Shown here piece by piece: positions 9,165 to 57,274 of a stretch of DNA of 64,000 nucleotides (positions are counted from its first letter, which is position 1; every line of letters starts with the position of its first letter). This stretch comes from an uncultured Methanosarcinales archaeon. GTDB lineage: Archaea > Nanobdellota > Nanobdellia > Woesearchaeales > ARS49. A program made the position numbers and the translations under genes. The stretch spans positions 30,902 through 94,901 of the forward strand of contig CAYGYR010000003.1 of NCBI GenBank assembly GCA_964354285.1, in the 5' to 3' direction. Below the pieces are notes generated by a model, which was given only the letters and a program-made list of their open reading frames with translations, made no database searches and was not told the origin of the DNA.

Positions 9165-9189
9165 GTTTTTATTTTCTTTATTTTAAGAA

Positions 9190-9501: not shown

Positions 9502-9553
9502 AGGGTATATAATGGGGTTTGAAGTATTTAAAACTATTGAAATATTTATTGAT

Positions 9554-10611: not shown

Positions 10612-10696
10612 CCCTGCTTAGCTCAATGGCAGAGTGGCCGGCTGTAAAAAATCTTGCAGCTCCCGGCAGGTCTCAGTTCGAATCTGAGAGCAGGGA
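10612..10696 (+). tRNA. tRNA-Tyr (GTA) with an approximately 15 nt intron at the canonical 37/38 position
   Basis: Acceptor ccctgct/agcaggg. D arm gctc...gagt. Anticodon stem gccgg/ccggc with loop ct-GTA-a, interrupted by aaaatcttgcagctc. T arm ctcag-TTCGAAT-ctgag. Discriminator A. Confidence 0.8.
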
Positions 10697-10732
10697 CTCG
10701 GGCTTGCATCCCTAACTGCAGGAGGAAATAAA

Positions 10733-15433: not shown

Positions 15434-16966
15434 TTACCAAGTAATCATTCCGTGCGCTTTCTTGAAGTTTTTGTAGTTCTGCCAGCAGTCTTTTGATGCG
15501 CCCCCTGCTGCTGCTTTCTTTTCATCATCTTCTTTTTGCAGGTCTGCTTTGGTTGGCTTCTTTTTGCCTTTTGGTATTACTGGAATAAGCGCGCCAAATG
15601 TTTCCCTGAATCCTTTTCCTATGGCTGTGAATGGCTCAAGCAGTGACGGCATCTTTGTTGGCTTTGGCTCTTCTTTTTTCACTTCAAGCTGTTCTGCTTC
15701 TGCAAGATATTTCTCAAGATCATCGCCAATCGCGTCCATTGTTGCCCTGACTGAGCTGTCAATGCTCTTTAGCATCTCAAGGTCTTCTTTTTCCTTCATC
15801 AACATGAAATTCTTTATCTGCTCTTCGCTCCAGCCATATGCCCTCCAGCTTATCTTGGTCTCACCGACATGCACAGGCCCCCTGTGGTATCCTGGAGTTT
15901 CCTGCGTGAATTGCATTGATGGCTTTGTCCTGTATTGGAAAGTGAGCAGAAGGCAGCTGTAAAATTGTGAGTTTCCTTTTGGTATTTTCTGGCCGAGAAT
16001 CTCTATCTCAATCAGAGAGCCCTCAAATGAAGCTATTAATTCTTCTGAGCTTAGCTTGGTGATATCTCCCTGCAGCCTCTCGACATGCCTCATGTATGGC
16101 TTCAGCCAGCTCAGGTACATCCTTATTATGTTGTAGTTCTGCCTCAGGTATCTGAGCTCGAAAACCTTTCTTTGCTTGAGCTCTTTGTAGTTTTCCTCTC
16201 TCCAGACAAGGAATTGGTGGAATTTTCTTTTCAGTAAATCCTTGATAACCCTTGTGGTGTCAATGCCTTCAACAACCTTGTCCACATCATCTGTTTTTTG
16301 AGGGTGCCTTGAGAAGAACCAGTCAGGAAGCGTGGTGAACTGGAGCTGTGTTGCCAGCTGGAATATGTTCGGGCTTGTTCTCTGCCCCTGCACAACTCCG
16401 TCAACAAGGTCGCACCATATGCCTTTTAGTGTGACCTCTGCTGCAGTCAAACCTTTTCGCGCGTCTTCGTGGTATGCTAGTCTTTCGTCAATCCATCTTA
16501 TGTCCCTGGTTAGCTGGAAGAGGTCTTTTCTTATGAACTGCCCTATTGTCGCAAGAAACTGCATTACCTTGTCTGATGCAAGGCCTAATCTTGCTGTTGC
16601 AGCTCCCCAGAATGCGCTGTGCTCAGATGCTGTGAATATGTCTGTTATTTTATGGATTATGGGATATGCCCAGTCAATTTTCATGTGGTTCAGCGCCCAG
16701 AAGTATATTGGCTCTATTGACTCGTGCGGTGACTCATAAATCAGGAAGTATTTGTTCTTTGGTGTAGGGTAGTCCAGGTGCATCATCTGGTCTTTCTGCA
16801 CCTCAAAAAGCTCGTGGTCAGCGTATTTTTCAGCGTCTGCGTCGCTCAGCGTTTCAAGAAATGCCTTTTTTTCTTTATTATTCAGGTTGGAGAAGTTAGG
16901 ATGGTCTTTTTTGAAGCTTTTGCTGCAAAAGCCATAAAGTATCATTCGTTTGCTTGCTGTGGTCAT
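15434..16966 (-). CDS. Hypothetical protein, 510 aa, with a Lys-rich C-terminal tail
   Basis: Long ORF with coding-like composition. I recognise no motif. Confidence 0.5.
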   Translation of the reverse strand: MTTASKRMILYGFCSKSFKKDHPNFSNLNNKEKKAFLETLSDADAEKYADHELFEVQKDQMMHLDYPTPKNKYFLIYESPHESIEPIYFWALNHMKIDWAYPIIHKITDIFTASEHSAFWGAATARLGLASDKVMQFLATIGQFIRKDLFQLTRDIRWIDERLAYHEDARKGLTAAEVTLKGIWCDLVDGVVQGQRTSPNIFQLATQLQFTTLPDWFFSRHPQKTDDVDKVVEGIDTTRVIKDLLKRKFHQFLVWREENYKELKQRKVFELRYLRQNYNIIRMYLSWLKPYMRHVERLQGDITKLSSEELIASFEGSLIEIEILGQKIPKGNSQFYSCLLLTFQYRTKPSMQFTQETPGYHRGPVHVGETKISWRAYGWSEEQIKNFMLMKEKEDLEMLKSIDSSVRATMDAIGDDLEKYLAEAEQLEVKKEEPKPTKMPSLLEPFTAIGKGFRETFGALIPVIPKGKKKPTKADLQKEDDEKKAAAGGASKDCWQNYKNFKKAHGMITW

Positions 16967-31843: not shown

Positions 31844-34800
31844 TTAATATCTTCTTTTCCCAAAGAATTTTCTTTTATGATGACCGCTGCTGCTATAATA
31901 CTTTTTATGGCCTCCGCTGCCGTAAGAATCATCGATTTTATTGTCTTTGCGGTATTGCTCTCTTTCCTTTTCAGCCATCACGTTTAGTTGATATTGTATT
32001 GAGTAAAAATTAGTCAGTTTGTCATTCACTTTCTGCTCTATCTCTGAGATTGCTGTTATGAAGTTCTCCCTGTCAGATTCTTCAAATCTCTTTTCCTTTG
32101 TATCTTCTTTGAATCTTTCTATCATTTCATCTGGCAGTTTGTATTGTGCAATCTCTCCCCGGACTGCCTTTTCAAGCGCATTATCTTTTCCTTGCAAGAC
32201 TCTTTGCAGGTTGTATTTGAGGTATTCGGGCTTGAAGCTGCCCCATGTTTCAGAGTCATATGCTTTTAAGACTCTCTCCCCGGCTTTCTTCTGCATTCCA
32301 AGGCCCTGCCCTATTTTTCTTATGGCAGGATCGCGCTGCAGTTCAGGGAATATCTGGTCAAGATAAAACTTATCAATCTCTTTTTTCCAGCTTGCCTCCT
32401 CTTTTATCTGGCTTGCTAGCTCCTGCCTTATCAAAAATGATATTTCCTGGCTTTTTTCCTGCTTTATTTTCGGAATTGCTGAATTTTTCTCATCAAAAGA
32501 TAGGACAAAATCAATATCCTCATTTTTAAGGCTGTTTGCATAATGCAGGTCTCCAAAGAATCTTGCATCATTCGAATACTCTGGATACTTGCGGAGGATG
32601 AATTCTTTTACTTGGGGCAGTTTGCTGAAAAACCTCTCAAGCTCAGTATACTCCATGCTTCGAGTGGCTGAGCTGTTGCGCAATTTGTCCTTGGCCCGGT
32701 CTTGCCTTATTTCATCTTCAAGCCCAACATATGCCTCATTTATTCCATTTATGCTTTCAGAAGTGGCAAAGTATTCTTGATTAGGTGAAATCCTGATTGG
32801 ATTCAAATAATTGTTATATCGCTTATTCAATATTGCCCGGAGCTTCTCGACAGTCTCTTTGGGCATAGGCACTGATTTGTCTTTTTCAGCAAGAATGTTA
32901 GCTGCCTCTTCTGCCTTGTAATATTTAGTTCCATCTGTTTCTCTCTTGATGCCTGTGCTGGTTTTTTGTGTTATAGTCTTTCTTTCCTTGTCATAGATGA
33001 TTATTTCCAGATTGTTTAATTCCCCCATTCTTTTGCTTACTTTTTCCCAGGAATCAGGCACTTTAACATAACTGACAGCACTGTATACTGCATTGATTTG
33101 CTTTTCGAGCTCAGTATCAATGTATTTTGATTCAAATAATGATTCTGTAAAGCCGAGTTCTGATACGACTCCTTTCTTGTGCATGTCTTGTATGTATTTT
33201 ACTCTATCTTGGGTTTTTTCGTTCTGCTCATGCACACCATGCTTTTGCAGCATTTTGTAATAATATGCTGCCCTGCTTTTTTCCTGGCCTGTCTTGGCAA
33301 TCACTTCTTTTGGAACAATGCCAAACTCGTATGCACTTAGGATTTTTTGCCTGAATTTTTGGTATTCTTTATGCTCCACAAAGCCAGTATTCTCCAGAAG
33401 CTCAAAGAACTTATCAGCACCAACCCCTTCGATTTTAGTCAGGCCGGAGAAGTGTGTACTAAATCCCTCTGCCAGGAAATATTCTTGTTTCAACACTTTA
33501 AAATCAGCTTCGCCTGCATTTTCATCCTTTAATTTCCTTGCCTGCCTAAGCTTTCTTCCTATCGTGATTATCTCTGGGGCAACGTGGTTGAAGTATGCAA
33601 TATGATGGTTTCTCAGGTAATTTTCTCTTTGGGTACTCTGCCCTATCCTGCTTCGTTTCAGGAAAGATTTCACAGCAGAATATTCATCTTTTGTAAAGAC
33701 CTGCTCTCTTACAATCTCTCCCCATTTTTTATAGTCTTCATGAAGCTCTTCTTTTGCTTTCTCAAACCAAGGCTCGATTTCTTTTATTATGTAATCCCAT
33801 GTTCTTCCAACGCCATACCTGTCGCAGGTCTCCCTGTTTATTGCTATTCTTCTTTCAATGATGTCTTTGAAATGGTTATGCACCCCCATTGCCTCGATTC
33901 TTGTGACAAATTCCTGCTCAAGGACATCTCTTATTGTTTTCTCTGGCAGGTTTTTCCTGTTTCTGTATTTTGTCTGCGGCAGCGTGAAGTGCTTATCAAT
34001 ATTTACTTTGCCGTATTGTTTGATGTGCGGGTGATTGTCATCAAGTTTTGACAGGTAAACTAGGTCTTGTTTGACTCCTGCAAGCAGGAGGTCTGTTTTT
34101 CTCTGCCTGAATTCATGGGAATAGACCATTATTTCTGCAAGGTCATCATCTGTGAGAAGGTGCGTTGCTTTGTTAAGCTTGTACCATATCTGTAAAAGGT
34201 CCTCAACGTATTCTTCGCGGATATTTTCGCTGATTGCACGCTCTTCCAGCCCCTTGAACCAGTTAAAGGTATTTGTGCTGTTTCTTTGGTCAATATCAAA
34301 CTTGACGCCAGATTCATCTCCTTCTGCCAGTTCATGGATATGCTCTAATCCGAGAACTGTTTTCAGGGTATCTGCATCTAGGCCTAAGGCTTCAAGCTTT
34401 TTTTGAAGCTCAGGCGAAAGACCTGCAATGATTTCCTGGAGCTTTTCCTCTTTTGTTTTTTTAGCGGTATCTCTGTACTGTTTTAGATTGTTAGGGATGT
34501 TAAGCTCTTCAAAAAGTGTTGGCAGGCTGCTGTAGCAATCCATGCCGATTGCTGCGCTGTCTCTTGCAGTGATTTTTTTCTCAGCTTTTATTTTGCCGTA
34601 TATCCTGTTTTTTGCCTCGTTTCCGCCTTTGACATTCAGCAGGACTGCTTCTGCAGAAAATGGCTGCCCGCATACACAGTTTCCTTCTACATCTTTAACA
34701 TAAAAGTCATCTGATTTTTCCAGTTTTTTTGGCAAATCATCAAGACGAGACACTTGGTATTCTAGAACAAGCCCTCTTAGCAGGGAAAGCCTGGAGGTGT

Positions 34801-34924
34801 TTTTGCCTTCTACCCAGCTTAAAATTACCTCTTCTGTTTGTTTTCCAAAACTTACTCTTCTATCTGTCTTTTGGAAAAAGAATTCTATAAGTTCACTTAG
34901 TTTTGTTGTTTTTCTCCTCGCCAT
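31844..34924 (-). CDS. Large hypothetical protein (about 1026 aa) with no recognisable catalytic motifs
   Basis: Long uninterrupted ORF convergent with tfb. It is rich in charged residues, with no P-loop and no Cys cluster. I chose the second Met (MARRK) as the start. Confidence 0.6.
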   Translation of the reverse strand: MARRKTTKLSELIEFFFQKTDRRVSFGKQTEEVILSWVEGKNTSRLSLLRGLVLEYQVSRLDDLPKKLEKSDDFYVKDVEGNCVCGQPFSAEAVLLNVKGGNEAKNRIYGKIKAEKKITARDSAAIGMDCYSSLPTLFEELNIPNNLKQYRDTAKKTKEEKLQEIIAGLSPELQKKLEALGLDADTLKTVLGLEHIHELAEGDESGVKFDIDQRNSTNTFNWFKGLEERAISENIREEYVEDLLQIWYKLNKATHLLTDDDLAEIMVYSHEFRQRKTDLLLAGVKQDLVYLSKLDDNHPHIKQYGKVNIDKHFTLPQTKYRNRKNLPEKTIRDVLEQEFVTRIEAMGVHNHFKDIIERRIAINRETCDRYGVGRTWDYIIKEIEPWFEKAKEELHEDYKKWGEIVREQVFTKDEYSAVKSFLKRSRIGQSTQRENYLRNHHIAYFNHVAPEIITIGRKLRQARKLKDENAGEADFKVLKQEYFLAEGFSTHFSGLTKIEGVGADKFFELLENTGFVEHKEYQKFRQKILSAYEFGIVPKEVIAKTGQEKSRAAYYYKMLQKHGVHEQNEKTQDRVKYIQDMHKKGVVSELGFTESLFESKYIDTELEKQINAVYSAVSYVKVPDSWEKVSKRMGELNNLEIIIYDKERKTITQKTSTGIKRETDGTKYYKAEEAANILAEKDKSVPMPKETVEKLRAILNKRYNNYLNPIRISPNQEYFATSESINGINEAYVGLEDEIRQDRAKDKLRNSSATRSMEYTELERFFSKLPQVKEFILRKYPEYSNDARFFGDLHYANSLKNEDIDFVLSFDEKNSAIPKIKQEKSQEISFLIRQELASQIKEEASWKKEIDKFYLDQIFPELQRDPAIRKIGQGLGMQKKAGERVLKAYDSETWGSFKPEYLKYNLQRVLQGKDNALEKAVRGEIAQYKLPDEMIERFKEDTKEKRFEESDRENFITAISEIEQKVNDKLTNFYSIQYQLNVMAEKEREQYRKDNKIDDSYGSGGHKKYYSSSGHHKRKFFGKRRY

Positions 34925-35028
34925 ACCGTATATCTGGAAATAGCAGCCCATTTATAAAACTTAGTATGTTCCACTACAACAACAAAGCACCACAAAGCTT
35001 ATATACGAAGGTCACTCAGATTCTCATC

Positions 35029-45080: not shown

Positions 45081-46532
45081 TTAGAATCGAGATTTTTTTG
45101 GTTTCTTCTCATAACTAAGCACTGCATAAATGACCAGCCCTGCGCCGATTGCAGCCGCAAGTATCACAAGAAGCCATGCAAAAAATCCAGCGCCTGTTTT
45201 CTTTTTTTGCGGCGCAGTCTTTGCCTGTTGCTGCTCAAATGGAAGCGGCTTGTGCTCTGCTTTTGCTTCAGGTTTTACAGCAGTGGTTGTGTTTGCAGCA
45301 GATGTATTTTTACTCAGTGTTTCATTTTTTTGTGCCGCAGGCTTGATAATGACAACTGCGTTCTTGCCTGCGGTTTCATTTTTTATGACAGCCGTATTTA
45401 TTGCTTCCTGCCCTGTTGCATTTTTCTCAACCAGCATTCCTGGGAATTCTGTCGCGTATCTTATCACAGTGTCTTTGCTATCCCCGTCCTCGTTAAGGTC
45501 TCCTGTAAAGAACTCGTGCGTTGAAAATGCAAGTTTATTGCCGGAGATTACAGGATCTTTGCCATAAATCCCTGTCTGTATAAAAACACTGTTTCCCAGG
45601 TTATAAAATGAAATCTTGTTTTCCTGCGCAAAGGCAATTGTTTTTCCAAATATGCTTGTGCCAGAGCCATCAACTTTTGTATTTGTTAGCTTCTGGCTGG
45701 GAATATCATAATACATCACTATTTCGTCATCAATATCAAGGTCTCCATTCAAATCATCTGTAAATTGTTCTGGGACTGTGAATGCTGCGATATTTTCTTT
45801 GCTGATGGATGGCTTTTGCCCAAATGCGATTATGTTGCTTGTTTGGTTTGTTTCAAAGGAATAATACCTTAATATAAGGTCATCTGTGTCCTTGTCTTTG
45901 TTCACATCCTCATTAAGCTCTTTTTCAGAGGCCTCAAAAATTATGTATTTGCTGTTTGCTGCAGGATTTGTGCCTGCTTGTTTTGTGTTGATTATTTCCT
46001 TTGCTGCGATGTTATAGTATCTTATGATGGTATCTGCCTTGTCCCCATCATTGTTATAGTCAATGCCTGTCTCTGCTTCAAGGGTTGAGAAAACAATGGC
46101 AGTATCAGTCATCACAGGTGTTCTGCCATCTGCGCTTGCATCAATTATTTTTTTGTCAGGCAGGCTATAATATACTATCACTGTGTCGTTTTTGTCGCCG
46201 TCTGCATTAAGGTCTTTGTTCTGGCTTGCCTCAGGGCTTTCAAATGCGATGTTTGTCTCGAGAATAGCTGGGTTTTTTCCTGCAATTCCTGTGCTTGACA
46301 GCTCTTTTGTTTCTGTATTGTAATACCTGATTATAGTGTCTAGTTTATCGCTGTCGTTGTTTAGGTCGGCATTTATTTCAGATTCGTCTGTCTCAAAAAC
46401 AATAATGCTGCCGCTGAAATCAGGATTCCTTCCAAGCGCTTTTGTGTCAAATGTTTGCAGGGCAGATGCAGCCGCAGATAAAATGAGCAATGAAATCAAT
46501 AGCAGTAATGCGCTGTAGGCAATTTTTTTCAT
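45081..46532 (-). CDS. Secreted beta-propeller-like repeat protein with FG-GAP/Ca-binding-like DxNxDGDxxDT(I/V)I repeats and a C-terminal TM anchor
   Basis: Signal peptide, then 6-7 repeats of about 47 aa (DLNADGDKNDTVIVYY, DYNNDGDKADTIIRYYN and others). A Thr/Lys-rich linker follows. The C-terminus is GAGFFAWLLVILAAAIGAGLVIYAVLSYEKKPKK. Confidence 0.8.
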   Translation of the reverse strand: MKKIAYSALLLLISLLILSAAASALQTFDTKALGRNPDFSGSIIVFETDESEINADLNNDSDKLDTIIRYYNTETKELSSTGIAGKNPAILETNIAFESPEASQNKDLNADGDKNDTVIVYYSLPDKKIIDASADGRTPVMTDTAIVFSTLEAETGIDYNNDGDKADTIIRYYNIAAKEIINTKQAGTNPAANSKYIIFEASEKELNEDVNKDKDTDDLILRYYSFETNQTSNIIAFGQKPSISKENIAAFTVPEQFTDDLNGDLDIDDEIVMYYDIPSQKLTNTKVDGSGTSIFGKTIAFAQENKISFYNLGNSVFIQTGIYGKDPVISGNKLAFSTHEFFTGDLNEDGDSKDTVIRYATEFPGMLVEKNATGQEAINTAVIKNETAGKNAVVIIKPAAQKNETLSKNTSAANTTTAVKPEAKAEHKPLPFEQQQAKTAPQKKKTGAGFFAWLLVILAAAIGAGLVIYAVLSYEKKPKKSRF

Positions 46533-47510: not shown

Positions 47511-50222
47511 TCATGATTTTCTAGAAGCAGCATTTATTATTTCTTCGAAAACAGCTTCGTTTCCATCGCCTGACAGCATCCTGCCAAGGGCGCTTCCCTC
47601 TAGTTTTCTTACAGGGAACCTCATGCTCAGAATATTTTTTATTGACCCGTCTCCCCCAAACATCTCTTCTTCTGTTCTGGTATATTCGTATTTTTCTCCT
47701 TTTAGGATTTGCTGCTGCACGGCCTCATTAGAGAATCTCTGCGTTGACCTGTCAGACCTGTGGTAATAATTCATTCGCGCAGTCTTTTTGCACTTAAGCG
47801 CCTCATCAGGAATAGAGTTTTTGTAGAACAGTTTTATCTGGCCGTCTGCGAATCTTAGCGCTTCTCTTGGGTCATTTAGCTCCAGTGCCCTCTGCAGGAC
47901 TCCCTGTATTATGAATGTCTCGTATTCGCACCTGTTTCTTTTTCCCTCTGGATCAATTCCTTGGGATATGATCTGCCCGTCGATTAATGCAATGAATCTC
48001 CCTTTTGTGTCAGAAAGCACCCTGCCCCTGCCGAGCGCTATCGCGAGCTCTTCTTCTTCAAGGCGCTTGACAATGCCTTCAGAGAGCAGGTTTTGCTCCA
48101 GTACAAGGAATCTTTCTGAGTGGTTTATTATCTCGCTGCTTTTCAAGCAGTCGCAGAGCAGCGCCATTCTTTGCTGCAGTTCCTTGATGTAAGTATCCAT
48201 TATTATCTCTCCTGTGTTTTTCCCTACCCCAAAATATTTTCTAAAGTTGAGGTCATTGATATCCCTGTCACTGCCTTTCTTGCATGAATTGATGTATTCT
48301 TTCTTTAGGCTGTAAAGCACCCATTCAAGGTCAGAATTGAGGTACTCCATCAGCCGTATCTTCTTTTTTTGGTCTGCTGTTTTTTCCATTGCAGCAATTG
48401 TTTCGCCTGCGGTTTTTTCTATCACAGGGATCAATGTCTTGTAGTAGAGCGTTGGAAATATCACGTGGGCCGTGAAAATTCCTTTTTTTGGCCTGAAACT
48501 CTGGATGTTCATCTGCCTTTTGAAAGCATCCCAGAATGAGTCATATACCGAGAAATCCTCCCATGCCTTTGCTTCGGTTAAGTCAAATAGCTTGTATGAG
48601 GCAACATGCCGTTCAATCTGTTTCAGATACTCATCGCTCTGCCAGTGCTTCATTTGTTCTTGCTTAACAGGTATTCCTGCATGTTCTGCCTGCTGGATAT
48701 AGAAATTTCTCAGTTCATCATCACTCATCACAGATATCTTCTGGCCCCAGCGCTCTGCCAGGGTGTTGAACCGCCTGTATGTCTTTAACCTGCTCCAGCT
48801 TTGCTGCTGTATTTTGTCGTCAACAAGCGTTCGCTTTGCGGTTGTGCTAACTTTATAGGTTGGTGCAGAGTATTGTTTTGATTCGCAGAGTATCTCTTCA
48901 AGCATGTGGTCTCCGAGCATGTATGACTTCATCGCGTCCTGTGCTGCGTAATAAAGTATCTCGAGCGCAGCCTCTCTGTTTCCTTGCCTTGCCTGCTGTG
49001 TCTTGATTATCAGCTCGTCATAATTCAGGGTCTTTTTCTCGTTCTTGCCAAGCATGTAATTGAATGTTGTGTCAAGGTTGTTCCTAAATGTCCATGAACT
49101 CTGCATAGAATACGTGAAAGTGTCGATGTCAAACCTGCCGGGAATTATTCTTCTCTGCAGGAAATCCTTGACGATATTTGCGCTGTATTTAAGTGCCCTA
49201 TTCCCGATGCCCGGCCTGAATTTTCCGCCAGTCAGTGTATCAAGTTTCTTGTAGTCAAAGTTAAGGTGATTGGTGCCAAAGACAAAAAGAGGATCGTCAG
49301 CCTGCATTATTTGTGTCAGCCGCTCCCCCAGGCCAGTTGAGTCATTTGCGCATGCCAGCTTTATTTTTCTTTTTTCCTCTGTTCCGGGGGTATTCACTTC
49401 GAATTCTGCAAGGTCTTTTATGCAGTCAAAGGTATGCACGACAGTATCATTATCCCTGAAAGTTATGTATTGCGCTGAAAGAATTTTTTCCTGCCTGAGT
49501 GAATCAACAAGCTCGTCTAATTTTTTCAGGTAATCTTTTCTCTGCCAGTGCTGCAGGTGCTCTGGGTGGACTGATGTTTTTGTCTGCTCTGCAAGCTTAC
49601 TGTAAAACTGCATGAGCTCCTCATCGCGCATCATAAGTGTTCTCTGGTCAAGCTCTGTTTTTTTCCAATTCTCTGTCTCGATGTCGATTGCGCATTTTTT
49701 TTCGCGCAGCAGGTGCTCGATTGATATTGCTCCTGCCCCTCGCGCGATTTTTCTTGTGCTCTCGTCGTAATCATAGATTTTATAAGGCACCCCTATGCGC
49801 CACTGCGCCAGCCTTGTGACTTTGTTTTCGTGCCCTGTTATGAATTGTTTTGGCAGGATTCTTTTTTGCTGGTTTTCAGACAGATGCGGCATCTCTGCGT
49901 GCCAGACAAAATTTCTTATCCTTACATCCTCGTCTTTTGTATCATGCCCGGCATAAAAAAAGGCATCTGCATCTCCCAGGTATGCGTCAATGCCTTGTTC
50001 TGAGAACATTTTTTTGTATTGCTCCATCATTTCCCGGAATCTGTAGAATCCGCCGTGGCCGAGCAGCATCGGGCATGTGGGGACAATATGCTTTATTGTT
50101 ATTGGCTCCCCTTTTATTGATCTTCCATCCTCGATTGTCCTGAAGTATGGTCTGTATTGCGCTTTCTTTTTTCCTTCGCCGCTCAGCACGCGCTCCAAGT
50201 ATGTTATAAAAACTTTCACCAT
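47511..50222 (-). CDS. Large protein (903 aa) with a DEDD-type 3'-5' exonuclease domain resembling that of family B polymerases, but no polymerase catalytic motifs
   Basis: Exo I is AIDIETE, Exo II is FGTNHLNFDYKKL and Exo III is YYAAQD. No DxxSLYPS or YGDTDS motif. The N- and C-terminal domains are unassigned. Confidence 0.65.
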   Translation of the reverse strand: MVKVFITYLERVLSGEGKKKAQYRPYFRTIEDGRSIKGEPITIKHIVPTCPMLLGHGGFYRFREMMEQYKKMFSEQGIDAYLGDADAFFYAGHDTKDEDVRIRNFVWHAEMPHLSENQQKRILPKQFITGHENKVTRLAQWRIGVPYKIYDYDESTRKIARGAGAISIEHLLREKKCAIDIETENWKKTELDQRTLMMRDEELMQFYSKLAEQTKTSVHPEHLQHWQRKDYLKKLDELVDSLRQEKILSAQYITFRDNDTVVHTFDCIKDLAEFEVNTPGTEEKRKIKLACANDSTGLGERLTQIMQADDPLFVFGTNHLNFDYKKLDTLTGGKFRPGIGNRALKYSANIVKDFLQRRIIPGRFDIDTFTYSMQSSWTFRNNLDTTFNYMLGKNEKKTLNYDELIIKTQQARQGNREAALEILYYAAQDAMKSYMLGDHMLEEILCESKQYSAPTYKVSTTAKRTLVDDKIQQQSWSRLKTYRRFNTLAERWGQKISVMSDDELRNFYIQQAEHAGIPVKQEQMKHWQSDEYLKQIERHVASYKLFDLTEAKAWEDFSVYDSFWDAFKRQMNIQSFRPKKGIFTAHVIFPTLYYKTLIPVIEKTAGETIAAMEKTADQKKKIRLMEYLNSDLEWVLYSLKKEYINSCKKGSDRDINDLNFRKYFGVGKNTGEIIMDTYIKELQQRMALLCDCLKSSEIINHSERFLVLEQNLLSEGIVKRLEEEELAIALGRGRVLSDTKGRFIALIDGQIISQGIDPEGKRNRCEYETFIIQGVLQRALELNDPREALRFADGQIKLFYKNSIPDEALKCKKTARMNYYHRSDRSTQRFSNEAVQQQILKGEKYEYTRTEEEMFGGDGSIKNILSMRFPVRKLEGSALGRMLSGDGNEAVFEEIINAASRKS

Positions 50223-50277
50223 TCTGTAGTAGATATATAAGTAAGATATTTAAATAAGTTGGTATTTTGCACGATGC

Positions 50278-52527
50278 ATGGAAGTTGATAGTGTGTTTTC
50301 TATTGCAAACCCTTTTGCAGTGTATTATATAAACAGGGATTTTATTTCAGATGAAAAAATCTTCACGAGCCGTCTTGAGAAAATAATTCTCGAGAAGGCA
50401 AAAGAAAAGTCAGAGGCGCCTAGATCTACTGCAAGATACAACAAGTATCTTTTTTATGAGCAGGAGATTTTCAGTTCAGACCTTCATCAGCTGAAAGGAA
50501 AATATATCATACCTATGACTGCCATCAGCGTTATAGACCCGACGACAGGGCAGAAGGAAATCATCTGCCCCTTCTCAAACCAGAATATCGTGACAAGCAA
50601 GATGCTAGGGCTTCTTGAGCGGCCAATACCATTGAAATTCTTGCAGCGGTTTGTTTTCTGGCCAGTATCACCGATTGATTTCATGTTCTGTTTCGGAAAG
50701 AAAGACGATAAAGAGGGCATTATCCATCCGCTTGAGAAGTTAGTCCATGCAGTTGACACCAGGATTCAAGGCATTGGTTTTGGCGGCTTGTTCAAGAACA
50801 ATTATGAGACGAAGCAGGGAAACTTTAATGTCTATGCAGGAATTCTCGAGCCAAGGTATGCTGTCAATAGGTTCAGCAGGCACCCGCAGTCATTTGACCA
50901 GAAGATGAAAGAGCTTGGGTTTTCTACAGTACAAGATTACATTGATTACTGCAATGCCTCTGCATCTTTTTGCAGGAAAATTCTTGCCCAGAAATACGTC
51001 CATTTTTTCAGCAGGCTTGACCTTGTGAAGACACTTTATGACTTTGGGGTTCCAACTCTTCAGTATTTCGGGGAGAAAACCTCTTATGGCGCTAATGTCC
51101 TTGAGCTCGCCAGAAAATACTCAGGAGGCAGGTTTCCTTTTGGCTTTATTGGCGACGGGCCTCTCTCAAATGTGGATGAGATAACAACACTTGGTGTTGC
51201 CCATGATACAGCCATCCACAAGCTTTTTGGCTTTATCACAAAGCTCTATGAGTCAGAGAAAGGGGTTTCGCTGAAGCGCCCTAAAAAGAGAGAAGTCCCT
51301 GCTTGGGAGCAGAGGGGCAGTGCAGACGGCTGTGTAACTTACAGGCAGTGCCCGCAACATAATTTCTTTCTCTGTGAAATTCCTGAGTGCAGAAGCCCTT
51401 GTGCAAAAGACATAATAAATAATGAACTTTCAGAAAAAGACCTGCAGTATGTTGTGAAATTTGCAGATTACAAGCGGGTTGGCTTCTCAAGGATTGAACC
51501 GAGGCTTGTCCAGCTTGCAAACCAGGACTTCAGGGTTTTTGTTGGCGACAGAAGAACGAGCAAGCTGAACTCGTCATGGCAGCACACAGAGCTTACAAAT
51601 AAAAGAATGGAGTTCATTGATCTTGAGGAATTTATCTCTAAAGTGGGGGGCGTTGGTGATTTGCGCGGCTCTGAGTTCACGTTGTCTTGCGACATAATGC
51701 GCATTTTCTCAAAGTTTGGCAAGAGAATACGGCAGAGGATCATAGCTAATGAGCTTGAGAGGCACCCTGAGCTCGAGGAGGATTTCTTCAAGACAAATGA
51801 CCCTGAGACCTATGAAGGCATTGCTGCAATGCGCGGAACTGCTGTGCACAAAGTGATTTCTTTCCCGGTGGAGAATCTTGTGCATTATGAGACACTTGAG
51901 AAAGGTGGCTTTGATGTGGTGCCTTCTGAAAAGTACACGGAGCTTTCTTTTGTGCATAAGCGCATTGTCAAAAAAACTGGCGAGGAGATAAAAATAACAT
52001 TTCGCCCGGACTGCCAGCTCGTGTTGCATGGCTCTGGCGGCCTTGATCTTATAATCATTGACCACAAGACAAACCGGAAGCTTCCTTACCCGTATGTCAA
52101 ATACAAGAACCAAGGCAAAGTCTATGCGTACTGCCTGAAAAAAATCACAGGCATTCCTTTCAAGAATACATATCTTGTATTCAACCACATGGCTTTTGAT
52201 AACCTGTTTGGCATGACTTTTTCTGTTCCAGAAGGATACTCTAGTTCAGAGGGGCTTTACAGGTCCCAGAGTTTCGTCCCGCCAACTGTGTATTATCCAG
52301 AGCATAACTTTGATGCAGAGATTGAGCGCGAGATTGACAGGACATATCTCGCCCAGAAAAGCATTAAAGAAAATCCTCAGAAATTTCTCAAGGCAAAAGC
52401 AAAAAAGATTAAGCGCGGTGAGTGCGCAAAATGCTTCTCAGACCAGGTTCTTCTCTGCAATTATTTCACAAGCGCTGCAGGCATGAACATTCCGCTGAAA
52501 GATGCTGTTGATAGCTTGAAAGAATAA
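50278..52527 (+). CDS. Large protein (749 aa) with a C-terminal RecB/Cas4-family PD-(D/E)xK nuclease domain and an Fe-S cysteine cluster
   Basis: LDLIIIDHK serves as motifs II and III. QGKVYAYCL is the QxxxY motif. C-terminal CAKCFSDQVLLC, with an upstream Cys (PDCQ). The roughly 550 aa N-terminal region is unassigned. Confidence 0.6.
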   Translation: MEVDSVFSIANPFAVYYINRDFISDEKIFTSRLEKIILEKAKEKSEAPRSTARYNKYLFYEQEIFSSDLHQLKGKYIIPMTAISVIDPTTGQKEIICPFSNQNIVTSKMLGLLERPIPLKFLQRFVFWPVSPIDFMFCFGKKDDKEGIIHPLEKLVHAVDTRIQGIGFGGLFKNNYETKQGNFNVYAGILEPRYAVNRFSRHPQSFDQKMKELGFSTVQDYIDYCNASASFCRKILAQKYVHFFSRLDLVKTLYDFGVPTLQYFGEKTSYGANVLELARKYSGGRFPFGFIGDGPLSNVDEITTLGVAHDTAIHKLFGFITKLYESEKGVSLKRPKKREVPAWEQRGSADGCVTYRQCPQHNFFLCEIPECRSPCAKDIINNELSEKDLQYVVKFADYKRVGFSRIEPRLVQLANQDFRVFVGDRRTSKLNSSWQHTELTNKRMEFIDLEEFISKVGGVGDLRGSEFTLSCDIMRIFSKFGKRIRQRIIANELERHPELEEDFFKTNDPETYEGIAAMRGTAVHKVISFPVENLVHYETLEKGGFDVVPSEKYTELSFVHKRIVKKTGEEIKITFRPDCQLVLHGSGGLDLIIIDHKTNRKLPYPYVKYKNQGKVYAYCLKKITGIPFKNTYLVFNHMAFDNLFGMTFSVPEGYSSSEGLYRSQSFVPPTVYYPEHNFDAEIEREIDRTYLAQKSIKENPQKFLKAKAKKIKRGECAKCFSDQVLLCNYFTSAAGMNIPLKDAVDSLKE

Positions 52528-52560
52528 AGCTTTAATACCTAGCCTGCGTTTCAAGTTTTT

Positions 52561-53232
52561 ATGCTCAAAAAAATCTATGCATCATTGTATAAAGAATATG
52601 GCCCGCAGGGATGGTGGCCTGTCAATGGAAAATATAACAAAAACAATTTTGACATCCCGCGAAACAGGAAAGAGGAATTTGAGATAATGCTTGGGGCAAT
52701 CCTCACCCAGAATACTGCCTGGAAGAATGTCGAGAAAGCCCTGCATAATTTAAGGGAAAAAGACTTGATTGACGCTGAAAAGATTAAAAAAGTTCCGCTG
52801 AAAAAGCTTGCGGAATTTATCAGGCCCTCTGGATATTACAACCAGAAATCAGGGCGCTTGAAAATCATGGCTGATTTTTTTCTTGCAAACAAAAGCCTGC
52901 CAAAAAAATCTGTTGATGAGATGCGCTCGCTGCTTCTTGACGTAAAAGGTGTTGGCCCTGAGACCGCAGACTCTATTATACTGTATGCTTTCAGGAAGCC
53001 GAGTTTTGTGATAGATACATACACCAAAAGAATTTTCTCTCGGCTCGGCATCTGCGGGAAAGACTGCAAATACGATGAGCTGCAGGATATTTTTCACAGC
53101 AATCTTCCATCTGATGCAAAGCTCTTTAATGAATACCATGCGCTTATTGTCGAGCATGCAAAAAGATTCTGCGCAAAGAAGCCTGACTGTGCAGGCTGCT
53201 TTCTAAAGAAAGAGTGCAAGCAAAAATTCTAA
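52561..53232 (+). CDS. nth: Endonuclease III-like HhH-GPD DNA glycosylase with an Fe-S cluster
   Basis: HhH LLLDVKGVGPETADSIILYAF with a catalytic Asp region. C-terminal CAKKPDCAGCFLKKEC. Confidence 0.8.
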   Translation: MLKKIYASLYKEYGPQGWWPVNGKYNKNNFDIPRNRKEEFEIMLGAILTQNTAWKNVEKALHNLREKDLIDAEKIKKVPLKKLAEFIRPSGYYNQKSGRLKIMADFFLANKSLPKKSVDEMRSLLLDVKGVGPETADSIILYAFRKPSFVIDTYTKRIFSRLGICGKDCKYDELQDIFHSNLPSDAKLFNEYHALIVEHAKRFCAKKPDCAGCFLKKECKQKF

Positions 53233-53541: not shown

Positions 53542-53952
53542 ATGAGCATGCTTGATTTTTTGAGGTTCTGGAAGAAAAAAGAAGAGATGCCTGAGTTTCC
53601 AGAGGCAGGAATGCCGGAAACAGGAATGCATGAAATGCCTCCTGGAGAGTTCCCAGGTGTTTCAGCAGCTCCTGGTTTTGAGCCGACAAGCGCAATGGCT
53701 CCTGAGCAGCCCCCTGTTTTTGGGAGAGAGCCTGCAGAGACTCCAAGGGCTTTTGCACAGGCAGAGCCAACAGCACTCAGTGCGCCATCTTTCGGCAGGC
53801 CATCTGCACCAAGTTCTGATAAGGAATTCCAGCTCATCAATGCAAAGCTTGACTCAATCAAGGCATCAATAGACGGCCTTCACCAGCGCCTTGACAAGAT
53901 GGAGATTGAGAAGCAGCATAAGGAAGAAAAAGACATTTATGCCTGGCGATGA
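53542..53952 (+). CDS. Pro-rich hypothetical protein with a C-terminal coiled coil
   Basis: 136 aa. Confidence 0.45.
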   Translation: MSMLDFLRFWKKKEEMPEFPEAGMPETGMHEMPPGEFPGVSAAPGFEPTSAMAPEQPPVFGREPAETPRAFAQAEPTALSAPSFGRPSAPSSDKEFQLINAKLDSIKASIDGLHQRLDKMEIEKQHKEEKDIYAWR

Positions 53953-54401
53953 AGAATAAAAACTTTATTTTCTTTGGTATTGCATTCCTGGTTATTTTTC
54001 TTGACCAGCTAACCAAGTATCTGGTAAAATCAAATCTCTCATTAGGCCAGTCTATTCTTGTTATTAAAAATTTTTTCAGCATAACCTTAATCAAGAATTT
54101 CGGGATTGGCTTTGGGATGCTCAACACCCCTGCAGCAAGATGGATTCTTGTCTGCATAACAATAGTGATAATTGGAATCATACTATATTACTACAAACAG
54201 ATTCCAGAAAAATATCTTGTGCTAATCGCGGCAGCGCTTGTTTTAGGTGGAGCAATAGGCAATCTTATCGACAGGATTCTGCTTGGCTTTGTCATTGACT
54301 TCCTTGATTTCACAGTCTGGCCTGCATTCAACATAGCAGATTCTGCAGTTACAATTGGCGTCATTGGCCTGATAATTTATTTCATTACAGAAAAAAAGTA
54401 G
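53949..54401 (+). CDS. lspA: lipoprotein signal peptidase (signal peptidase II, LspA)
   Basis: 4 TM helices, with the GNLIDR and FNIAD catalytic motifs. Confidence 0.8.
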   Translation: MKNKNFIFFGIAFLVIFLDQLTKYLVKSNLSLGQSILVIKNFFSITLIKNFGIGFGMLNTPAARWILVCITIVIIGIILYYYKQIPEKYLVLIAAALVLGGAIGNLIDRILLGFVIDFLDFTVWPAFNIADSAVTIGVIGLIIYFITEKK

Positions 54402-54571: not shown

Positions 54572-55075
54572 ATGGCTGAAGAATCAAAAGGAATTGCCCT
54601 TGCAATACTCGGCATAGTAGCGGTTATAGCAATTATCGGACTTGTTCTGATGTTCTCGAAAATGAAAGCTGCTACTGGCGACGTGTATGGCGGTGGATTG
54701 AAATGGGGAGAAGGCGGATGGCAAAAAGAAGGATTATCAACAAGATTCCTTCGTGCGCCTGAACTGCAGATACCAGGGTCTCCTTACCCAATTGAGACAG
54801 CAAGAGGCGGCGGAAAGCTTGGCGGAGAAGCTAGAACCACAGAGCCTAGGAAAAATGCTCCAGGACTGGCTTTCTATGAGAGCCCGATTGGAATAAGAGA
54901 TTGCCGCATGGCAGTAGCAACAGGCTGGCTAGAAGCAGGATATACCGCGCAGACTGCAAAAAATAGCAGGATACTTTCTGAATACCCTAGCTGCTATGGC
55001 GTGGACAAAGCCTGGCCAGAAGGATTTATATCAGAGCAAATCCCAGGATTCTGCTGCAAAGAGCCTACGTATTAA
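54572..55075 (+). CDS. pilin-like Cys-rich small protein, paralog 1
   Basis: Begins MAEESKG|IALAILGIVAVIAIIGLVLMF, a short charged N-terminus with K-G followed by a hydrophobic helix of about 21 aa. C-terminal C...C...CC. RBS AGAGGTGA. Confidence 0.8.
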   Translation: MAEESKGIALAILGIVAVIAIIGLVLMFSKMKAATGDVYGGGLKWGEGGWQKEGLSTRFLRAPELQIPGSPYPIETARGGGKLGGEARTTEPRKNAPGLAFYESPIGIRDCRMAVATGWLEAGYTAQTAKNSRILSEYPSCYGVDKAWPEGFISEQIPGFCCKEPTY

Positions 55076-55171
55076 ATATAATTTTTTTTATTAATTTTTT
55101 TCTAATTTTTCTAAAACAAAAATCTAACTAAAGCATCTTATGCGAGGAAAGTATACAAAACAAGCAAAAAG

Positions 55172-55179
55172 TTTATATA
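55172..55179 (+). promoter_or_regulatory. TATA box (TTTATATA) with an A-rich BRE upstream of paralog 2
   Basis: AAAAAGTTTATATACAAAAACAGTTTTA. The same module is duplicated at 56019. Confidence 0.55.
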
Positions 55180-55238
55180 CAAAAACAGTTTTATTCTAAA
55201 AAAGCATAATAACAACAAAAAATTTGAGGTGATTATTG

Positions 55239-55784
55239 ATGGATGAACATAACAAGGGTATTGCTATTGCAATTATAGGCATAGTTGCTGTTACTGCAAT
55301 CGTAGGACTGGTTTTTCTGTTTTCTATGTCAAAAACCGGCGCATCTTTTATGGGCGGGCCAAAAATCTATGGTGGAGCAACAAAAGGAAACCTGTTCCCT
55401 TACACGAGGTTCATGGACCAGGATCAGCCTGTTGTCGAAACGCCTGGATGGGAAACTACTGTAACGGCTCCTGCTGAGAATGTATACGGCGGAGCAGCGA
55501 GAGCAGACCTGTATGTTGGCAACACAATGCCTACAGTCGAGAAACAGGTTTCAAGCGGCTTCAGGTATGGTAGAGAGCTAGGCAAGATTCCAACAGCACT
55601 TACATCATGCATGGCACTTGACTTCAAGGATGAAGCAGGCAATCGCGTCTTTGCACCAGTAGGAGTTTCAAGAAATATGCTGCAGGATTATGAGTTTGTC
55701 AAAGGGCAGTGCTTCAGGTATACTGCAGATGGAACCCCAGTCAACACAATCCTCTCAAAGGATGCGTGCTGCACAGTAAGGTAA
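55239..55784 (+). CDS. pilin-like Cys-rich small protein, paralog 2
   Basis: MDEHNKG|IAIAIIGIVAVTAIVGLVFLF; C-terminal C..C..CC (ACCTVR). RBS GAGGTGA. Confidence 0.8.
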   Translation: MDEHNKGIAIAIIGIVAVTAIVGLVFLFSMSKTGASFMGGPKIYGGATKGNLFPYTRFMDQDQPVVETPGWETTVTAPAENVYGGAARADLYVGNTMPTVEKQVSSGFRYGRELGKIPTALTSCMALDFKDEAGNRVFAPVGVSRNMLQDYEFVKGQCFRYTADGTPVNTILSKDACCTVR

Positions 55785-55941
55785 ATTTTTTTAATTTATT
55801 TTTTCTCTTTTTTTCTGTATTCTGTAATATCCGTTTCATAAGAAAAAAACAAAAGTTTTAACTCGAATAGTTTGTCTTTTTCAATTTAGAAGCAAAAAAT
55901 ATATAACAATAAAGTATGTCTGCTTCTAAATAACGCAGATT

Positions 55942-56008
55942 CAGCGAGTCTGCGGGATCAAAGAATTGCGCACTAAACTAGGGTTTTAGACCCGCGCAAT
56001 TCTTTCAT
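55942..56008. ncRNA. repeat / candidate structured RNA element, copy 2
   Basis: CAGCGAGTCTGCGGGAT + stem aaagaattgcgc ... GGGTTTTAGACCC ... gcgcaattcttt. See copy 1 at 7694. Confidence 0.4.
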
Positions 56009-56018
56009 AAGCAAAAAG

Positions 56019-56026
56019 TTTATATA
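56019..56026 (+). promoter_or_regulatory. TATA box upstream of paralog 3
   Basis: Identical 26-mer AAAAAGTTTATATACAAAAACAGTTTTA. Confidence 0.55.
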
Positions 56027-56084
56027 CAAAAACAGTTTTAGTTATAAAAACATAATCAAGTAATAAAAAATAGAGGTGATTTTC

Positions 56085-56618
56085 ATGGAAGAGAACAAGC
56101 TTGCTGTGGCAATTCTTGGAGTAGTTGTTATTGTTGCAATAATATGCTTAGTGTTTATGTTTTCTGTTGGAAAGACAGGCGAAGCAATTTATAACCCAAT
56201 TTATGGCAGCTATGTCGTGCCAAAGATTTATACGAACTATAATCAAAATCCGTGGCCGTACTCAAGAGTGCTGGACCCAACAACAACGTATGAGAGGCCA
56301 GCTACAACAATGTCAGGTGAGGAGCCTGCAGGAACAACGTATGGTGGAGCATCAGAGTTCTTCATGACAAACACTCCAAAAGGGGTGCAGAGCACATTCG
56401 TGACCTATAAAAGGTCTGCTGAAAAAAGTATTCCAACAGCACAGACAACTGGCATAGCAATCAGATTCCCTGGCGGCATAAAAGCAGATTCTTGCTATGG
56501 AATGCAGCAGTATTATACAAAATCAGCTGACTCAACAAGAAACTGCTTCACAGAAGATGCATATGGCAGGGCAATCAACGCGTATATGCCACAGTTCTAT
56601 GGCTGCTGCGACAGCTAA
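56085..56618 (+). CDS. pilin-like Cys-rich small protein, paralog 3
   Basis: MEENKLAVAILGVVVIVAIICLVFMF; C-terminal C..C..CC (GCCDS). Confidence 0.8.
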   Translation: MEENKLAVAILGVVVIVAIICLVFMFSVGKTGEAIYNPIYGSYVVPKIYTNYNQNPWPYSRVLDPTTTYERPATTMSGEEPAGTTYGGASEFFMTNTPKGVQSTFVTYKRSAEKSIPTAQTTGIAIRFPGGIKADSCYGMQQYYTKSADSTRNCFTEDAYGRAINAYMPQFYGCCDS

Positions 56619-56667
56619 ATTTTTTATTTATTTTTTTCTCTTATTATTTAATAACACCTTTCTGATG

Positions 56668-56710
56668 TTTGGTTGCTTCTCGAGCACGAATGAGGAGCGC
56701 CTTTTGATTC
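56668..56710 (+). repeat. repeat-family partial copy C
   Basis: GGTTGCTTCTCGAGCACGAATGAGGAGCGCCTTTTGATTCTAACC matches the 3' half of copies A and B. Confidence 0.7.
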
Positions 56711-56789
56711 TAACCATTAAAAACGCAAAGCGTTTGGGGTCTCAAAGAGTTTTGCTCTTTGAAACTTTCCCAAAGTTAGAAACAAAAGA

Positions 56790-56797
56790 TTTATATA
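56790..56797 (+). promoter_or_regulatory. TATA box upstream of paralog 4
   Basis: AAAAGATTTATATACACGAAC. Confidence 0.5.
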
Positions 56798-56857
56798 CAC
56801 GAACGGTTACTATTCTCTAAAAATCAAACTAAAATAAAAAATCGAGGTGAATAGATA

Positions 56858-57274
56858 ATGGAACAGTCAAAAGCAATCCCATTAGTAATTCTAGGCATTA
56901 TTGCGTTGATAGCAATAATTGGTATTGTGTTAATGTTCAAGATGTCTGCAACAGGCGGAGCTGTCAGCGGAATAACAACTTGGGGAAGGGCAATCGCAAA
57001 GAGCGGCGGAAGAGCATACAACCCTTACGCACCGACCTGGGGAAAAGCAATCGCAGGCGTAGAGGCATTCAAAGTTGGCACCATCCTAGGACAGGCTTGC
57101 TTGGTTGTTGACAAGAGCCAGGCAGAGAAAGGAATCATTCCTATTGAAGCATTTAATGACCTGACAACAGGAAAATGCTATCCTTACTTCACTGGATTTG
57201 AGCAAAATGCAGACAGTGTCTGCTGCTTGGAATCATATATACAGTCAATGGTTCCGAGATACAATGTTATTTGA
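56858..57274 (+). CDS. pilin-like Cys-rich small protein, paralog 4
   Basis: MEQSKAIPLVILGIIALIAIIGIVLMF; C-terminal C..C..CC. Confidence 0.8.
   Translation: MEQSKAIPLVILGIIALIAIIGIVLMFKMSATGGAVSGITTWGRAIAKSGGRAYNPYAPTWGKAIAGVEAFKVGTILGQACLVVDKSQAEKGIIPIEAFNDLTTGKCYPYFTGFEQNADSVCCLESYIQSMVPRYNVI

Follow-up and report, generated by a model that had tools for sequence, protein, structure and literature searches.

A divergent gene pair of Woesearchaeota/Pacearchaeota-type archaea predicted to encode a polymerase-derived exonuclease and a RecB/Cas4-type nuclease

In a 64,000-nucleotide stretch of an uncultured archaeal genome (contig CAYGYR010000003.1 of assembly GCA_964354285.1, positions 30,902 to 94,901; hereafter the window), two large genes, here called A and B, are transcribed divergently from a short common spacer, and a glycosylase gene follows B. 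Both A and B proteins are named "hypothetical" in the NCBI records. A preliminary description of this DNA, made from its letters and open reading frames (ORFs), had presented A as an exonuclease and B as a nuclease. The ORF positions, the spacer, and all the motifs it quoted are present as it gave them (Table 1). The two ORFs are not products of chance, as full-length homologues of both were found in many metagenomes. The window itself is a segment of a core archaeal chromosome. It encodes the split RNA polymerase subunits B'/B'' and A'/A'', ribonucleotide reductase, an S-layer protein, ribosomal protein S8e, and signal peptidase II, and its GC content is uniform throughout.

Protein A: polymerase scaffold and active sites

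Searched alone against the Pfam and NCBIfam models, A gave no match. A word-indexed homologue search returned three proteins, including only two non-identical ones, and the resulting three-sequence profile found nothing in the PDB. When the same profile was used in an exhaustive HMMER search, 141 cluster representatives were obtained. Of these, 38 scored below 1e-30, and the majority were 750–1000 amino acids (aa) long. We aligned 76 of these sequences, and all family counts for A refer to this alignment. The 76-sequence profile matched the family B DNA polymerases (PolBs) of Pfu, KOD, Tgo, 9N, and P. abyssi in the PDB at E-values of about 1e-30. The matches form two collinear stretches, one in the exonuclease domain and one in the KxY/thumb region. 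The B3-type archaeal PolBs are the nearest relatives, with 1e-30, whereas Pol II and Pol delta reach 1e-14. Alignment of the family with Pfu by hhalign gave a probability of 99.2 over 475 columns; the Pfu sequence used here is consistent with the PDB alignments from the profile search.

The same fold was predicted by AlphaFold2 (AF2). With the 76-sequence alignment, the model of A reached a predicted local distance difference test (pLDDT) value of 90.1 and a predicted template modelling (pTM) score of 0.90, as against a pLDDT of only 36 with three sequences. Foldseek aligned this model over the full length with archaeal PolBs (E about 1e-18), followed by Pol epsilon, E. coli Pol II, Pol alpha, RB69, and others. 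As modelled, A has the complete architecture of a PolB, i.e., N-terminal domain, exonuclease, palm, fingers, and thumb. The N-terminal part of about 170 aa and the C-terminal part of about 450 aa, which the preliminary description had left unassigned, thus correspond to the N-terminal domain of PolBs and to a palm/fingers/thumb in degenerate form, as the profile, AF2, and Foldseek matches indicate. Its guess that A might hide an inactivated polymerase fold was right, according to the PDB profile search, hhalign, AF2, and Foldseek. The Pfam models DNA_pol_B and DNA_pol_B_exo1 do not match the window protein, and among ten relatives tested, one (P0018) passes DNA_pol_B_exo1 with 30.3 bits.

Exo I, Exo II, and Exo III: The motifs DxE, NxxxFD, and YxxxD of PolB exonucleases are all found in A, and their key residues are invariant in the family (Table 1). 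The earlier assignment of a PolB-type DEDD exonuclease is therefore upheld.

Motif A: The equivalent of YLDFRALYP in Pfu is HVIFPTLYY in A. The position of the catalytic Asp is hydrophobic throughout the 76 sequences. In the model, a beta-strand (581–590) followed by a helix is predicted around this motif.

Motif C: YIDTDG of Pfu is replaced with IINHSERF in A, and the family pattern is I-N-x-S. The region is modelled as a beta-hairpin (698–709).

Motif B and KxY: The fingers region of A aligns with that of PolBs and the signature KxxxNSxYG is gone. A degenerate KxY segment is listed in Table 1.

In none of the columns at the motif A and motif C positions do acidic residues reach 60% of the 76 sequences. 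The register at these two motifs is partly inferred, and no other register yields conserved carboxylates. Semi-conserved acids in the C-terminal half are limited to D757 (66%) and E768 (89%), both of which lie beyond the KxY position. What would mark an active polymerase, namely, the Asp of motif A DxxSLYPS, the Asp(s) of motif C YxDTDS, motif B, KxY, and matches to the Pfam PolB models, is lacking in A, in agreement with the preliminary description, which had found no polymerase motifs. It had also considered that full-length homology to a canonical repair enzyme might emerge, for example a split PolB with catalytic motifs that had been overlooked. Of this, the full-length PolB homology and the core-genome context hold, whereas the catalytic motifs are genuinely gone and had not been missed.

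The polymerase half nevertheless appears from the alignment to be still under constraint, with an occupancy of 0.90 and a column conservation akin to that of the N-terminal domain. Judged by these residues, A is a PolB turned into a predicted dedicated exonuclease, in which the proofreading site is intact and the polymerase carboxylates are gone family-wide.

Two further features concern the architecture of A. A helical insert after Exo I is absent from canonical PolBs and is kept in the close family. A second copy of it (aa 499–550) occurs in the window protein only, as the closest homologues P0002 and P0003 have no counterpart, and it is modelled at a pLDDT of 53–71. By its similarity, this copy is a diverged, lineage-specific intragenic duplication of the first insert. 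The conserved C-terminal motif GTIxxVxWxF was weighed as a PCNA-interacting-protein (PIP) box; in the AF2 model it is a packed helix and not a disordered tail.

Two A homologues are about 300 aa longer than usual, with 1151 aa (L012, 5473–8925) and 1222 aa (L016, 3481–7146). Inteins were considered as the source of the extra length and are not supported, as no intein or other Pfam domain was found in them.

Protein B, its linkage to A, and the shared spacer

Nine homologues of B were found directly and further ones were taken from the loci, and up to 17 sequences were compared.

N-terminal region: The first 455 aa or so are conserved and contain the strings K.GIDPYSN, GIGFG.L.K, PLYMEKTS, GICHPTA, GFSRIEPR, and FRGSEF. 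Invariant residues are K93, P98, S100, G169, K173, E266, G292, G306, E367, G402, R405, E407, K429, and R463-G-S465. No match to this region was found in PDB profiles, Pfam (17 members), PADLOC, PHROGs, or by hhalign against the A family. Searched against a set of 5.8 billion proteins, the B profile returned only the already known B proteins.

Nuclease domain: The C-terminal domain matches phrog_298 ("exonuclease", 2.6e-8) and the Cas4-like phrog_1706 (3e-7). Pfam PDDEXK_1 scores 1.9e-4 and 21.9 bits, just under its cutoff of 22, and 6 of the 17 members match. Neither the full-length nor the C-terminal profile found a sequence match in the PDB. G520, H524, and E555 are identical in 17/17 sequences, Y553 and D590 are also invariant, and so are HPD/RPD578, D595-x-K597, and Q612xxxY616 in all 16 sequences that cover the region. 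The motif order of the RecB/Cas4 family (D...D/ExK plus QxxxY) and four Cys are thus both present by sequence.

Fe–S cluster: Like the "iron-staple" nucleases (Cas4, AddB, Dna2, and Exo5), B has the motif order G..H, Y.E, PD, DxK, QxxxY. One upstream and three C-terminal Cys complete the arrangement, which we take to be that of the Fe–S "staple" of these enzymes, and the four-Cys cluster of B is probably an Fe–S cluster. The spacing of the C-terminal Cys in Cas4 and AddB is C-x2-C-x5-C, as compared with C-x2-C-x7-C in B. B also differs from these nucleases in its length of 749 aa and in its N-terminal 455 aa, which belong to no known family. Cas4 proper, a small stand-alone nuclease of about 200 aa that is either CRISPR-associated or solo, was rejected as an identity for B because of this length and because no CRISPR/cas genes were seen in the gene tables of the loci or among the recurring neighbours, with no dedicated repeat search run. 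The C-terminus of B is a RecB/Cas4-type PD-(D/E)xK nuclease by prediction, which agrees with the preliminary description; the QxxxY and C-x2-C-x7-C motifs it named are invariant or nearly so.

A Walker A motif is present in 0/17 B sequences and absent from 75/76 A sequences (the sole match, P0047, looks like chance), and no helicase Pfam model matches A or B.

Next to B homologues on their contigs, an A homologue lies divergently upstream, at 53%, 30%, and 27% identity in three cases. One close match to B is annotated as Candidatus Pacearchaeota. A scan of species-representative genomes with a 12-sequence A alignment gave 13 loci, 10 of them labelled Woesearchaeota or Nanobdellota and three from binchicken metagenome-assembled genomes that carry the unconfirmed label Methanosarcinales. 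Among the loci L001–L016, B lies directly upstream of and divergent to A in 15/15 with an upstream flank, and also in L018 and L020 (hidden Markov model scans). The same is true for 8/8 metagenome loci with an upstream flank, some of which duplicate genome loci. Altogether, the pair was found at about 20 distinct Woesearchaeota/Pacearchaeota-type loci, down to about 20% pairwise identity. The unusual divergent pair described from the window alone is accordingly real and borne out across many loci.

Clustering of the neighbours in 20 loci plus the window showed A and B to be the sole recurring genes. Over 13 loci, the pairwise identities of A and of B correlate with r = 0.95 (means 0.31 and 0.33), which indicates that the two genes co-diverge vertically. 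Housekeeping genes are found as neighbours of the pair (those for a ribosomal protein, a tRNA synthetase, Trp synthase, and RNA polymerase), and L001, the closest relative, shows the same synteny as the window. No relatives were found in 2.9 million viral contigs. PADLOC gave no significant match for A and B from four lineages, the best being DndG (E 0.014, 12.5 bits). CRISPR/cas genes are absent from the locus gene tables and from the recurring-neighbour analysis, with no dedicated repeat search run.

We rejected an origin of the pair from a mobile element or a defence island because of the core context, the absence of PADLOC and viral matches, the recurrence of only A and B, and the vertical co-divergence. 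The earlier idea of a defence island is thus contradicted by the surrounding core chromosome (RNA polymerase, ribonucleotide reductase, S8e), by zero PADLOC matches, by the lack of relatives in viral contigs, and by the joint divergence. That the genes could not be assigned to a named repair or defence system still holds, neither protein matching one in Pfam, NCBIfam, or PADLOC. A and B together make up a conserved module of two genes in archaea of the Woesearchaeota/Pacearchaeota type (DPANN, Nanobdellota).

The spacer between A and B is 45–55 bp long in 11 loci across lineages (about 52 bp). In the window, it contains the perfect palindrome TATTTAAATA, centred 29.5 nt before the start codon of A and 26.5 nt before that of B. 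Nine of the 11 short spacers have an octamer of the TTTATAAA type at a distance of 23.5–30.5 nt from both start codons. In archaea, the TATA box precedes the transcription start by about 26 nt. This distance and the geometry of the spacer suggest one shared, symmetric TATA element that would give rise to two leaderless transcripts. Hence, A and B are probably co-expressed as leaderless mRNAs from a bidirectional promoter, as far as the spacer sequences tell.

Neighbouring genes and other features of the window

Table 1 Features of the A–B locus, with positions in the window
Feature	Position	Strand	Remarks
Gene A	47511..50222	(-)	903 aa; PolB-derived predicted pseudo-polymerase, exonuclease motifs intact, polymerase motifs lost
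A aa 1-170, PolB N-terminal domain	49713..50222	(-)	Full-length structural alignments; beta-rich AF2 model; boundary inferred
A aa 171-450, DEDDy 3'-5' exonuclease domain	48873..49712	(-)	Profile alignment to Pfu 183-379; hhalign
Exo I AIDIETE, aa 178-184 (D180, E182)	49671..49691	(-)	D and E invariant 76/76
A helical insert after Exo I, aa 192-243 (~55 aa)	49494..49649	(-)	Gaps vs Pfu; modelled helices H193-241
Exo II NHLNFDYKKL, aa 318-327 (D323)	49242..49271	(-)	D323 invariant 76/76
Exo III YYAAQD, aa 424-429 (Y425, D429)	48936..48953	(-)	Y425, D429 invariant 76/76
A second copy of helical insert, aa 499-550	48573..48728	(-)	37% identity over 52 aa, E 2e-11
A aa 576-903, degenerate palm/fingers/thumb	47514..48497	(-)	Collinear with Pfu palm-thumb
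Motif A remnant AHVIFPTLYYK	48438..48470	(-)	Catalytic Asp position = I588; hhalign register vs Pfu VYLDFRALYPS
Motif C remnant IINHSERF	48108..48131	(-)	DTD lost; N700 in 93% of family
KxY remnant KGRFIAL	47985..48005	(-)	Aligned to Pfu KKRYAVI
A–B divergent spacer	50223..50277		55 bp; putative bidirectional promoter
Perfect 10-bp palindrome TATTTAAATA	50247..50256		Single central TATA-box candidate
Gene B	50278..52527	(+)	749 aa; N-terminal region of no known family plus predicted C-terminal RecB/Cas4-like nuclease
B aa 1-457	50278..51648	(+)	Conserved, no detectable relatives
B aa 458-749, PD-(D/E)xK nuclease domain with 4-Cys cluster	51649..52527	(+)	PHROG, Pfam, invariant residues
C471, upstream Cys of putative Fe–S "staple"	51688..51690	(+)	Cys in 16/17 sequences
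D595-H-K597, (D/E)xK catalytic motif	52060..52068	(+)	Invariant
Q612xxxY616	52111..52125	(+)	Invariant
C716-x2-C719-x7-C727	52423..52458	(+)	13/14 lineages, as C-x2-C or C-x3-C then x7-C; absent from L002/P0011
HhH-GPD glycosylase	52561..53232	(+)	223 aa; 4-Cys cluster; neighbour only

Glycosylase: The gene downstream of B matches Pfam HhH-GPD (7.6e-19). Its Cys cluster is C-x5-C-x2-C-x5-C, as compared with C-x6-C-x2-C-x5-C in Nth, its HhH motif GVGPETA lacks the catalytic Lys of Nth, and the nth model TIGR01083 scores 68.9 bits against a cutoff of 211.7. Because the catalytic Lys is absent and the nth score is low, we regard the protein as a monofunctional-type member of the EndoIII superfamily and not as an Nth orthologue. 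The preliminary description had called it an EndoIII homologue; the superfamily assignment with four Cys stands, and orthology with Nth does not (no Lys, 68.9 vs 211.7). In the window, B and the glycosylase gene are on the same strand with a 33-bp gap between the B stop and the glycosylase start (52528–52560), and the gap is an identical 33 bp in L001. This arrangement makes co-transcription of the two genes possible in the lineage of the window. The glycosylase gene, along with S8e and signal peptidase II, stands beside the pair only in the window and in L001. Since it adjoins the pair at none of the other loci, it was rejected as a third component, and the three-gene order put forward earlier as a unit is not supported.

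Neighbours of A and B in other loci: The distant A subfamilies in L017 and L019 (P0054 and P0055 types, about 760–780 aa) keep the exonuclease motifs. Upstream of A, a Toprim protein and an intein-containing protein are encoded in L017 and a 205-aa metallophosphatase in L019. In L020, a gene for a Rad50/SbcC-like ATPase (AAA_23, 2e-20; 9065–11131) lies directly downstream of the A homologue, and an 814-aa ORF without Pfam match (995–3439) adjoins the B homologue. The ATPase gene next to A in this one locus is a weak hint of double-strand-break repair.

Other ORFs: Just downstream of signal peptidase II (53949–54401), the window contains four tandem paralogous small ORFs of 167, 182, 180, and 138 aa with Cys-rich C-termini (54572–57274, plus strand). 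They have in common the N-terminal hydrophobic anchor KGIAxAIxGIVAVxAIIGLVxMFS. A comparable run of ORFs of about 165 aa is found at the matching position in L001 (3617–5426). On the minus strand, an ORF of 483 aa (45081–46532) contains about eight tandem repeats of the type N.D(G/S)D..DT(I/V)IRYY and a C-terminal transmembrane segment, without a Pfam match. Two large ORFs on the same strand, of 1035 aa (31844–34951) and 510 aa (15434–16966), have no Pfam match at E<=0.001.

tRNA: ARAGORN predicted an 86-nt tRNA-Phe with the anticodon AAA at 10612–10697 (plus strand), with an Rfam tRNA match of 55 bits. Both the anticodon and the length are odd; probably, the prediction misreads an archaeal tRNA that contains an intron.

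Comparison with known systems and proposed function

Archaeal PolBs: A shares the Exo I/II/III DEDDy site with the B3/B1-type PolBs (Pfu, KOD, Tgo, 9N, P. abyssi) and is collinear with them in the exonuclease and palm–thumb junction regions. It differs from them in lacking the motif A Asp and the motif C DTD, in its degenerate KxY and motif B, in its insert after Exo I, in the missing Pfam PolB match, and in a partner gene that looks obligate.

Inactivated PolBs: Like PolB2/Dpo2 and the C-terminal module of Pol epsilon, A is a folded PolB homologue with substituted catalytic residues and linked to a partner. PolB2/Dpo2 was described as an inactivated group (Rogozin 2008; Makarova 2014, PMC4104785). 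PolB2 has a non-conserved Exo I, lacks Exo III, and retains a single Asp of motif C; its partners are arCOG07300 and an inactivated RadA, which are encoded in an operon with it (PMC7544198, PMC4104785). In the C-terminal half of Pol epsilon, the exonuclease and polymerase sites are both dead (PMC2669801). Unlike both, A has an intact predicted exonuclease, a dead polymerase, and a RecB-like nuclease as partner. Membership of A in PolB2 was rejected, as its exonuclease motifs are intact, it has no motif C Asp, and its partner is a different one.

AddAB/RecBCD: The concept of two nucleases, one for the 3' strand and one for the 5' strand, is similar, and the layout of B, in which a long N-terminal part is followed by a C-terminal staple nuclease, recalls AddB. 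In contrast to AddAB and RecBCD, A and B have no superfamily 1 (SF1) helicase/ATPase, and the 3'-strand nuclease in A is a DEDD PolB exonuclease and not a RecB domain. No sequence relationship of A or B to AddAB/RecBCD was detected in the PDB profile or Pfam searches.

A survey of PolBs (PMC7544198) worked with polymerase-domain queries and discarded sequences without those domains. A PolB family with a live exonuclease, a dead polymerase, and a nuclease partner is mentioned neither there nor in an archaeal polymerase review, a 2026 bacterial survey, or a Cas4 phylogenomics paper. Apparently, the A–B pair is undescribed in the searchable literature. For Woese- and Pacearchaeota, a B7 PolB of bacterial origin has been reported (PMC7544198), and some Pacearchaeota carry PolD (PMC8204110). 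Since A is closest to B3-type PolBs and these other polymerases are reported, A may be a retired ancestral replicase.

With moderate confidence, we propose that A and B are a housekeeping two-nuclease complex that processes DNA ends or intermediates in chromosome maintenance. From the folds, the active-site status, the pairing, the co-divergence, and the promoter geometry, we infer the complex, its substrates, and its cellular role as follows. A and B would form a complex, in which the dead polymerase chassis of A would hold on to a junction of duplex and single strand in the manner of PolBs in editing mode. A would then feed the 3' end to its exonuclease site and trim the 3' strand; the 5' strand or flap would be left to the nuclease of B for cleavage or digestion. 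The outcome would be a motor-less processor of dual polarity for end processing in repair or recombination, or for the clean-up of replication intermediates.

Several points speak against this proposal. At the two distant loci L017 and L019, no B gene adjoins A, so A is apparently able to work without a neighbouring B gene. Neither A nor B encodes a helicase/ATPase motor, unlike known end-resection machines. The N-terminal 455 aa of B, without a known family, could carry the main activity. In addition, PolB2/Dpo2 had been predicted to be inactive and was later shown to be an active translesion polymerase (PMC7544198; bioRxiv 10.1101/2021.09.10.459716), a precedent by which calls of a "dead" enzyme from sequence carry some risk.

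A more far-reaching version of the two-nuclease complex can be offered only tentatively. Here, A–B would be a previously unrecognised heterodimeric machine specific to Woese/Pacearchaeota-type DPANN archaea. The B3-like replicase of ancestral archaea would have been displaced by a B7 PolB of bacterial type and/or PolD and retired as a junction-clamping 3'-5' exonuclease. Coupled to a giant Fe–S nuclease with a 455-aa N-terminal region of new fold and separate function, it would replace the usual systems of end resection or flap processing (Mre11–Rad50/HerA–NurA or Dna2-like) in such minimal genomes.

It is less likely that the pair is a replisome accessory, with A docking at the fork as a non-synthesising PolB and proofreading in trans and B serving the maturation of Okazaki fragments as a flap nuclease like Dna2. 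The full PolB scaffold of A, kept under constraint, the Dna2/AddB-like "staple" arrangement of B, and the core-genome context are compatible with this role, as is the parallel with the dead C-terminal half of Pol epsilon. The nearness of A to archaeal B3-type PolBs fits a "retired" ancestral replicase in lineages for which B7 PolB (PMC7544198) and PolD (PMC8204110) are reported. However, no canonical PIP box or feature for interaction with the Cdc45–MCM–GINS (CMG) helicase was found, GTIxxVxWxF being modelled as a packed helix, and no replication genes recur beside the pair. The role also overlaps with end processing, from which it differs solely in the cellular process.

Nucleotide salvage seems improbable to us. 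The pair would degrade acquired or host DNA from both ends to mononucleotides, to the benefit of biosynthetically poor symbionts. DPANN archaea often lack nucleotide biosynthesis, the module is confined to reduced DPANN genomes, exonuclease-type activities with opposite polarity are predicted for A and B, and ribonucleotide reductase is encoded within the window. Yet bulk degradation does not need a complete, constrained PolB scaffold for primer–template binding, and uptake or transport genes are linked to the pair in no locus.

We give still less credence to the destruction of invading viral or plasmid DNA. Large, fast-evolving nucleases annotated as hypothetical would suit a defence function, the neighbourhood outside the pair is variable, and a role in defence has been proposed for the solo Cas4-like genes of DPANN archaea (PMC5704561). 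Such a function is at odds with the PADLOC result for four lineages, the housekeeping neighbours, the vertical co-divergence, and the 2.9 million viral contigs without relatives; moreover, the pair is single copy, and a sensor or ATPase component is absent.

That A is an active polymerase with a non-canonical active site, paired with B as a repair-synthesis enzyme plus nuclease, is highly improbable: the palm, fingers, and thumb are kept as a fold (AF2) and PolB2 is a precedent (PMC7544198; bioRxiv 10.1101/2021.09.10.459716), but PolB2 keeps one motif C Asp, whereas A has no conserved acid at motif A or C, D757 and E768 are located beyond KxY, and neither the KxY nor the motif B signature is preserved.

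For DPANN archaea, the pair points to a hitherto uncharacterised activity in DNA maintenance. DPANN genomes are small, and about 5 kb is nevertheless devoted to A and B. The two proteins are well-defined targets for biochemistry, including a conserved region of 455 aa without known relatives, and their spacer is a natural example of a candidate single-TATA bidirectional promoter in archaea. To our knowledge, PolBs have lost either the exonuclease, as in Pol alpha, Pol zeta, and PolB2, or the exonuclease and polymerase sites together, as in the C-terminal half of Pol epsilon. With a perfect proofreading site on a complete, apparently dead chassis and a large, predicted Fe–S nuclease as partner, the A family represents a different evolutionary outcome. 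A may show the fate of the ancestral archaeal replicase once it had been replaced.

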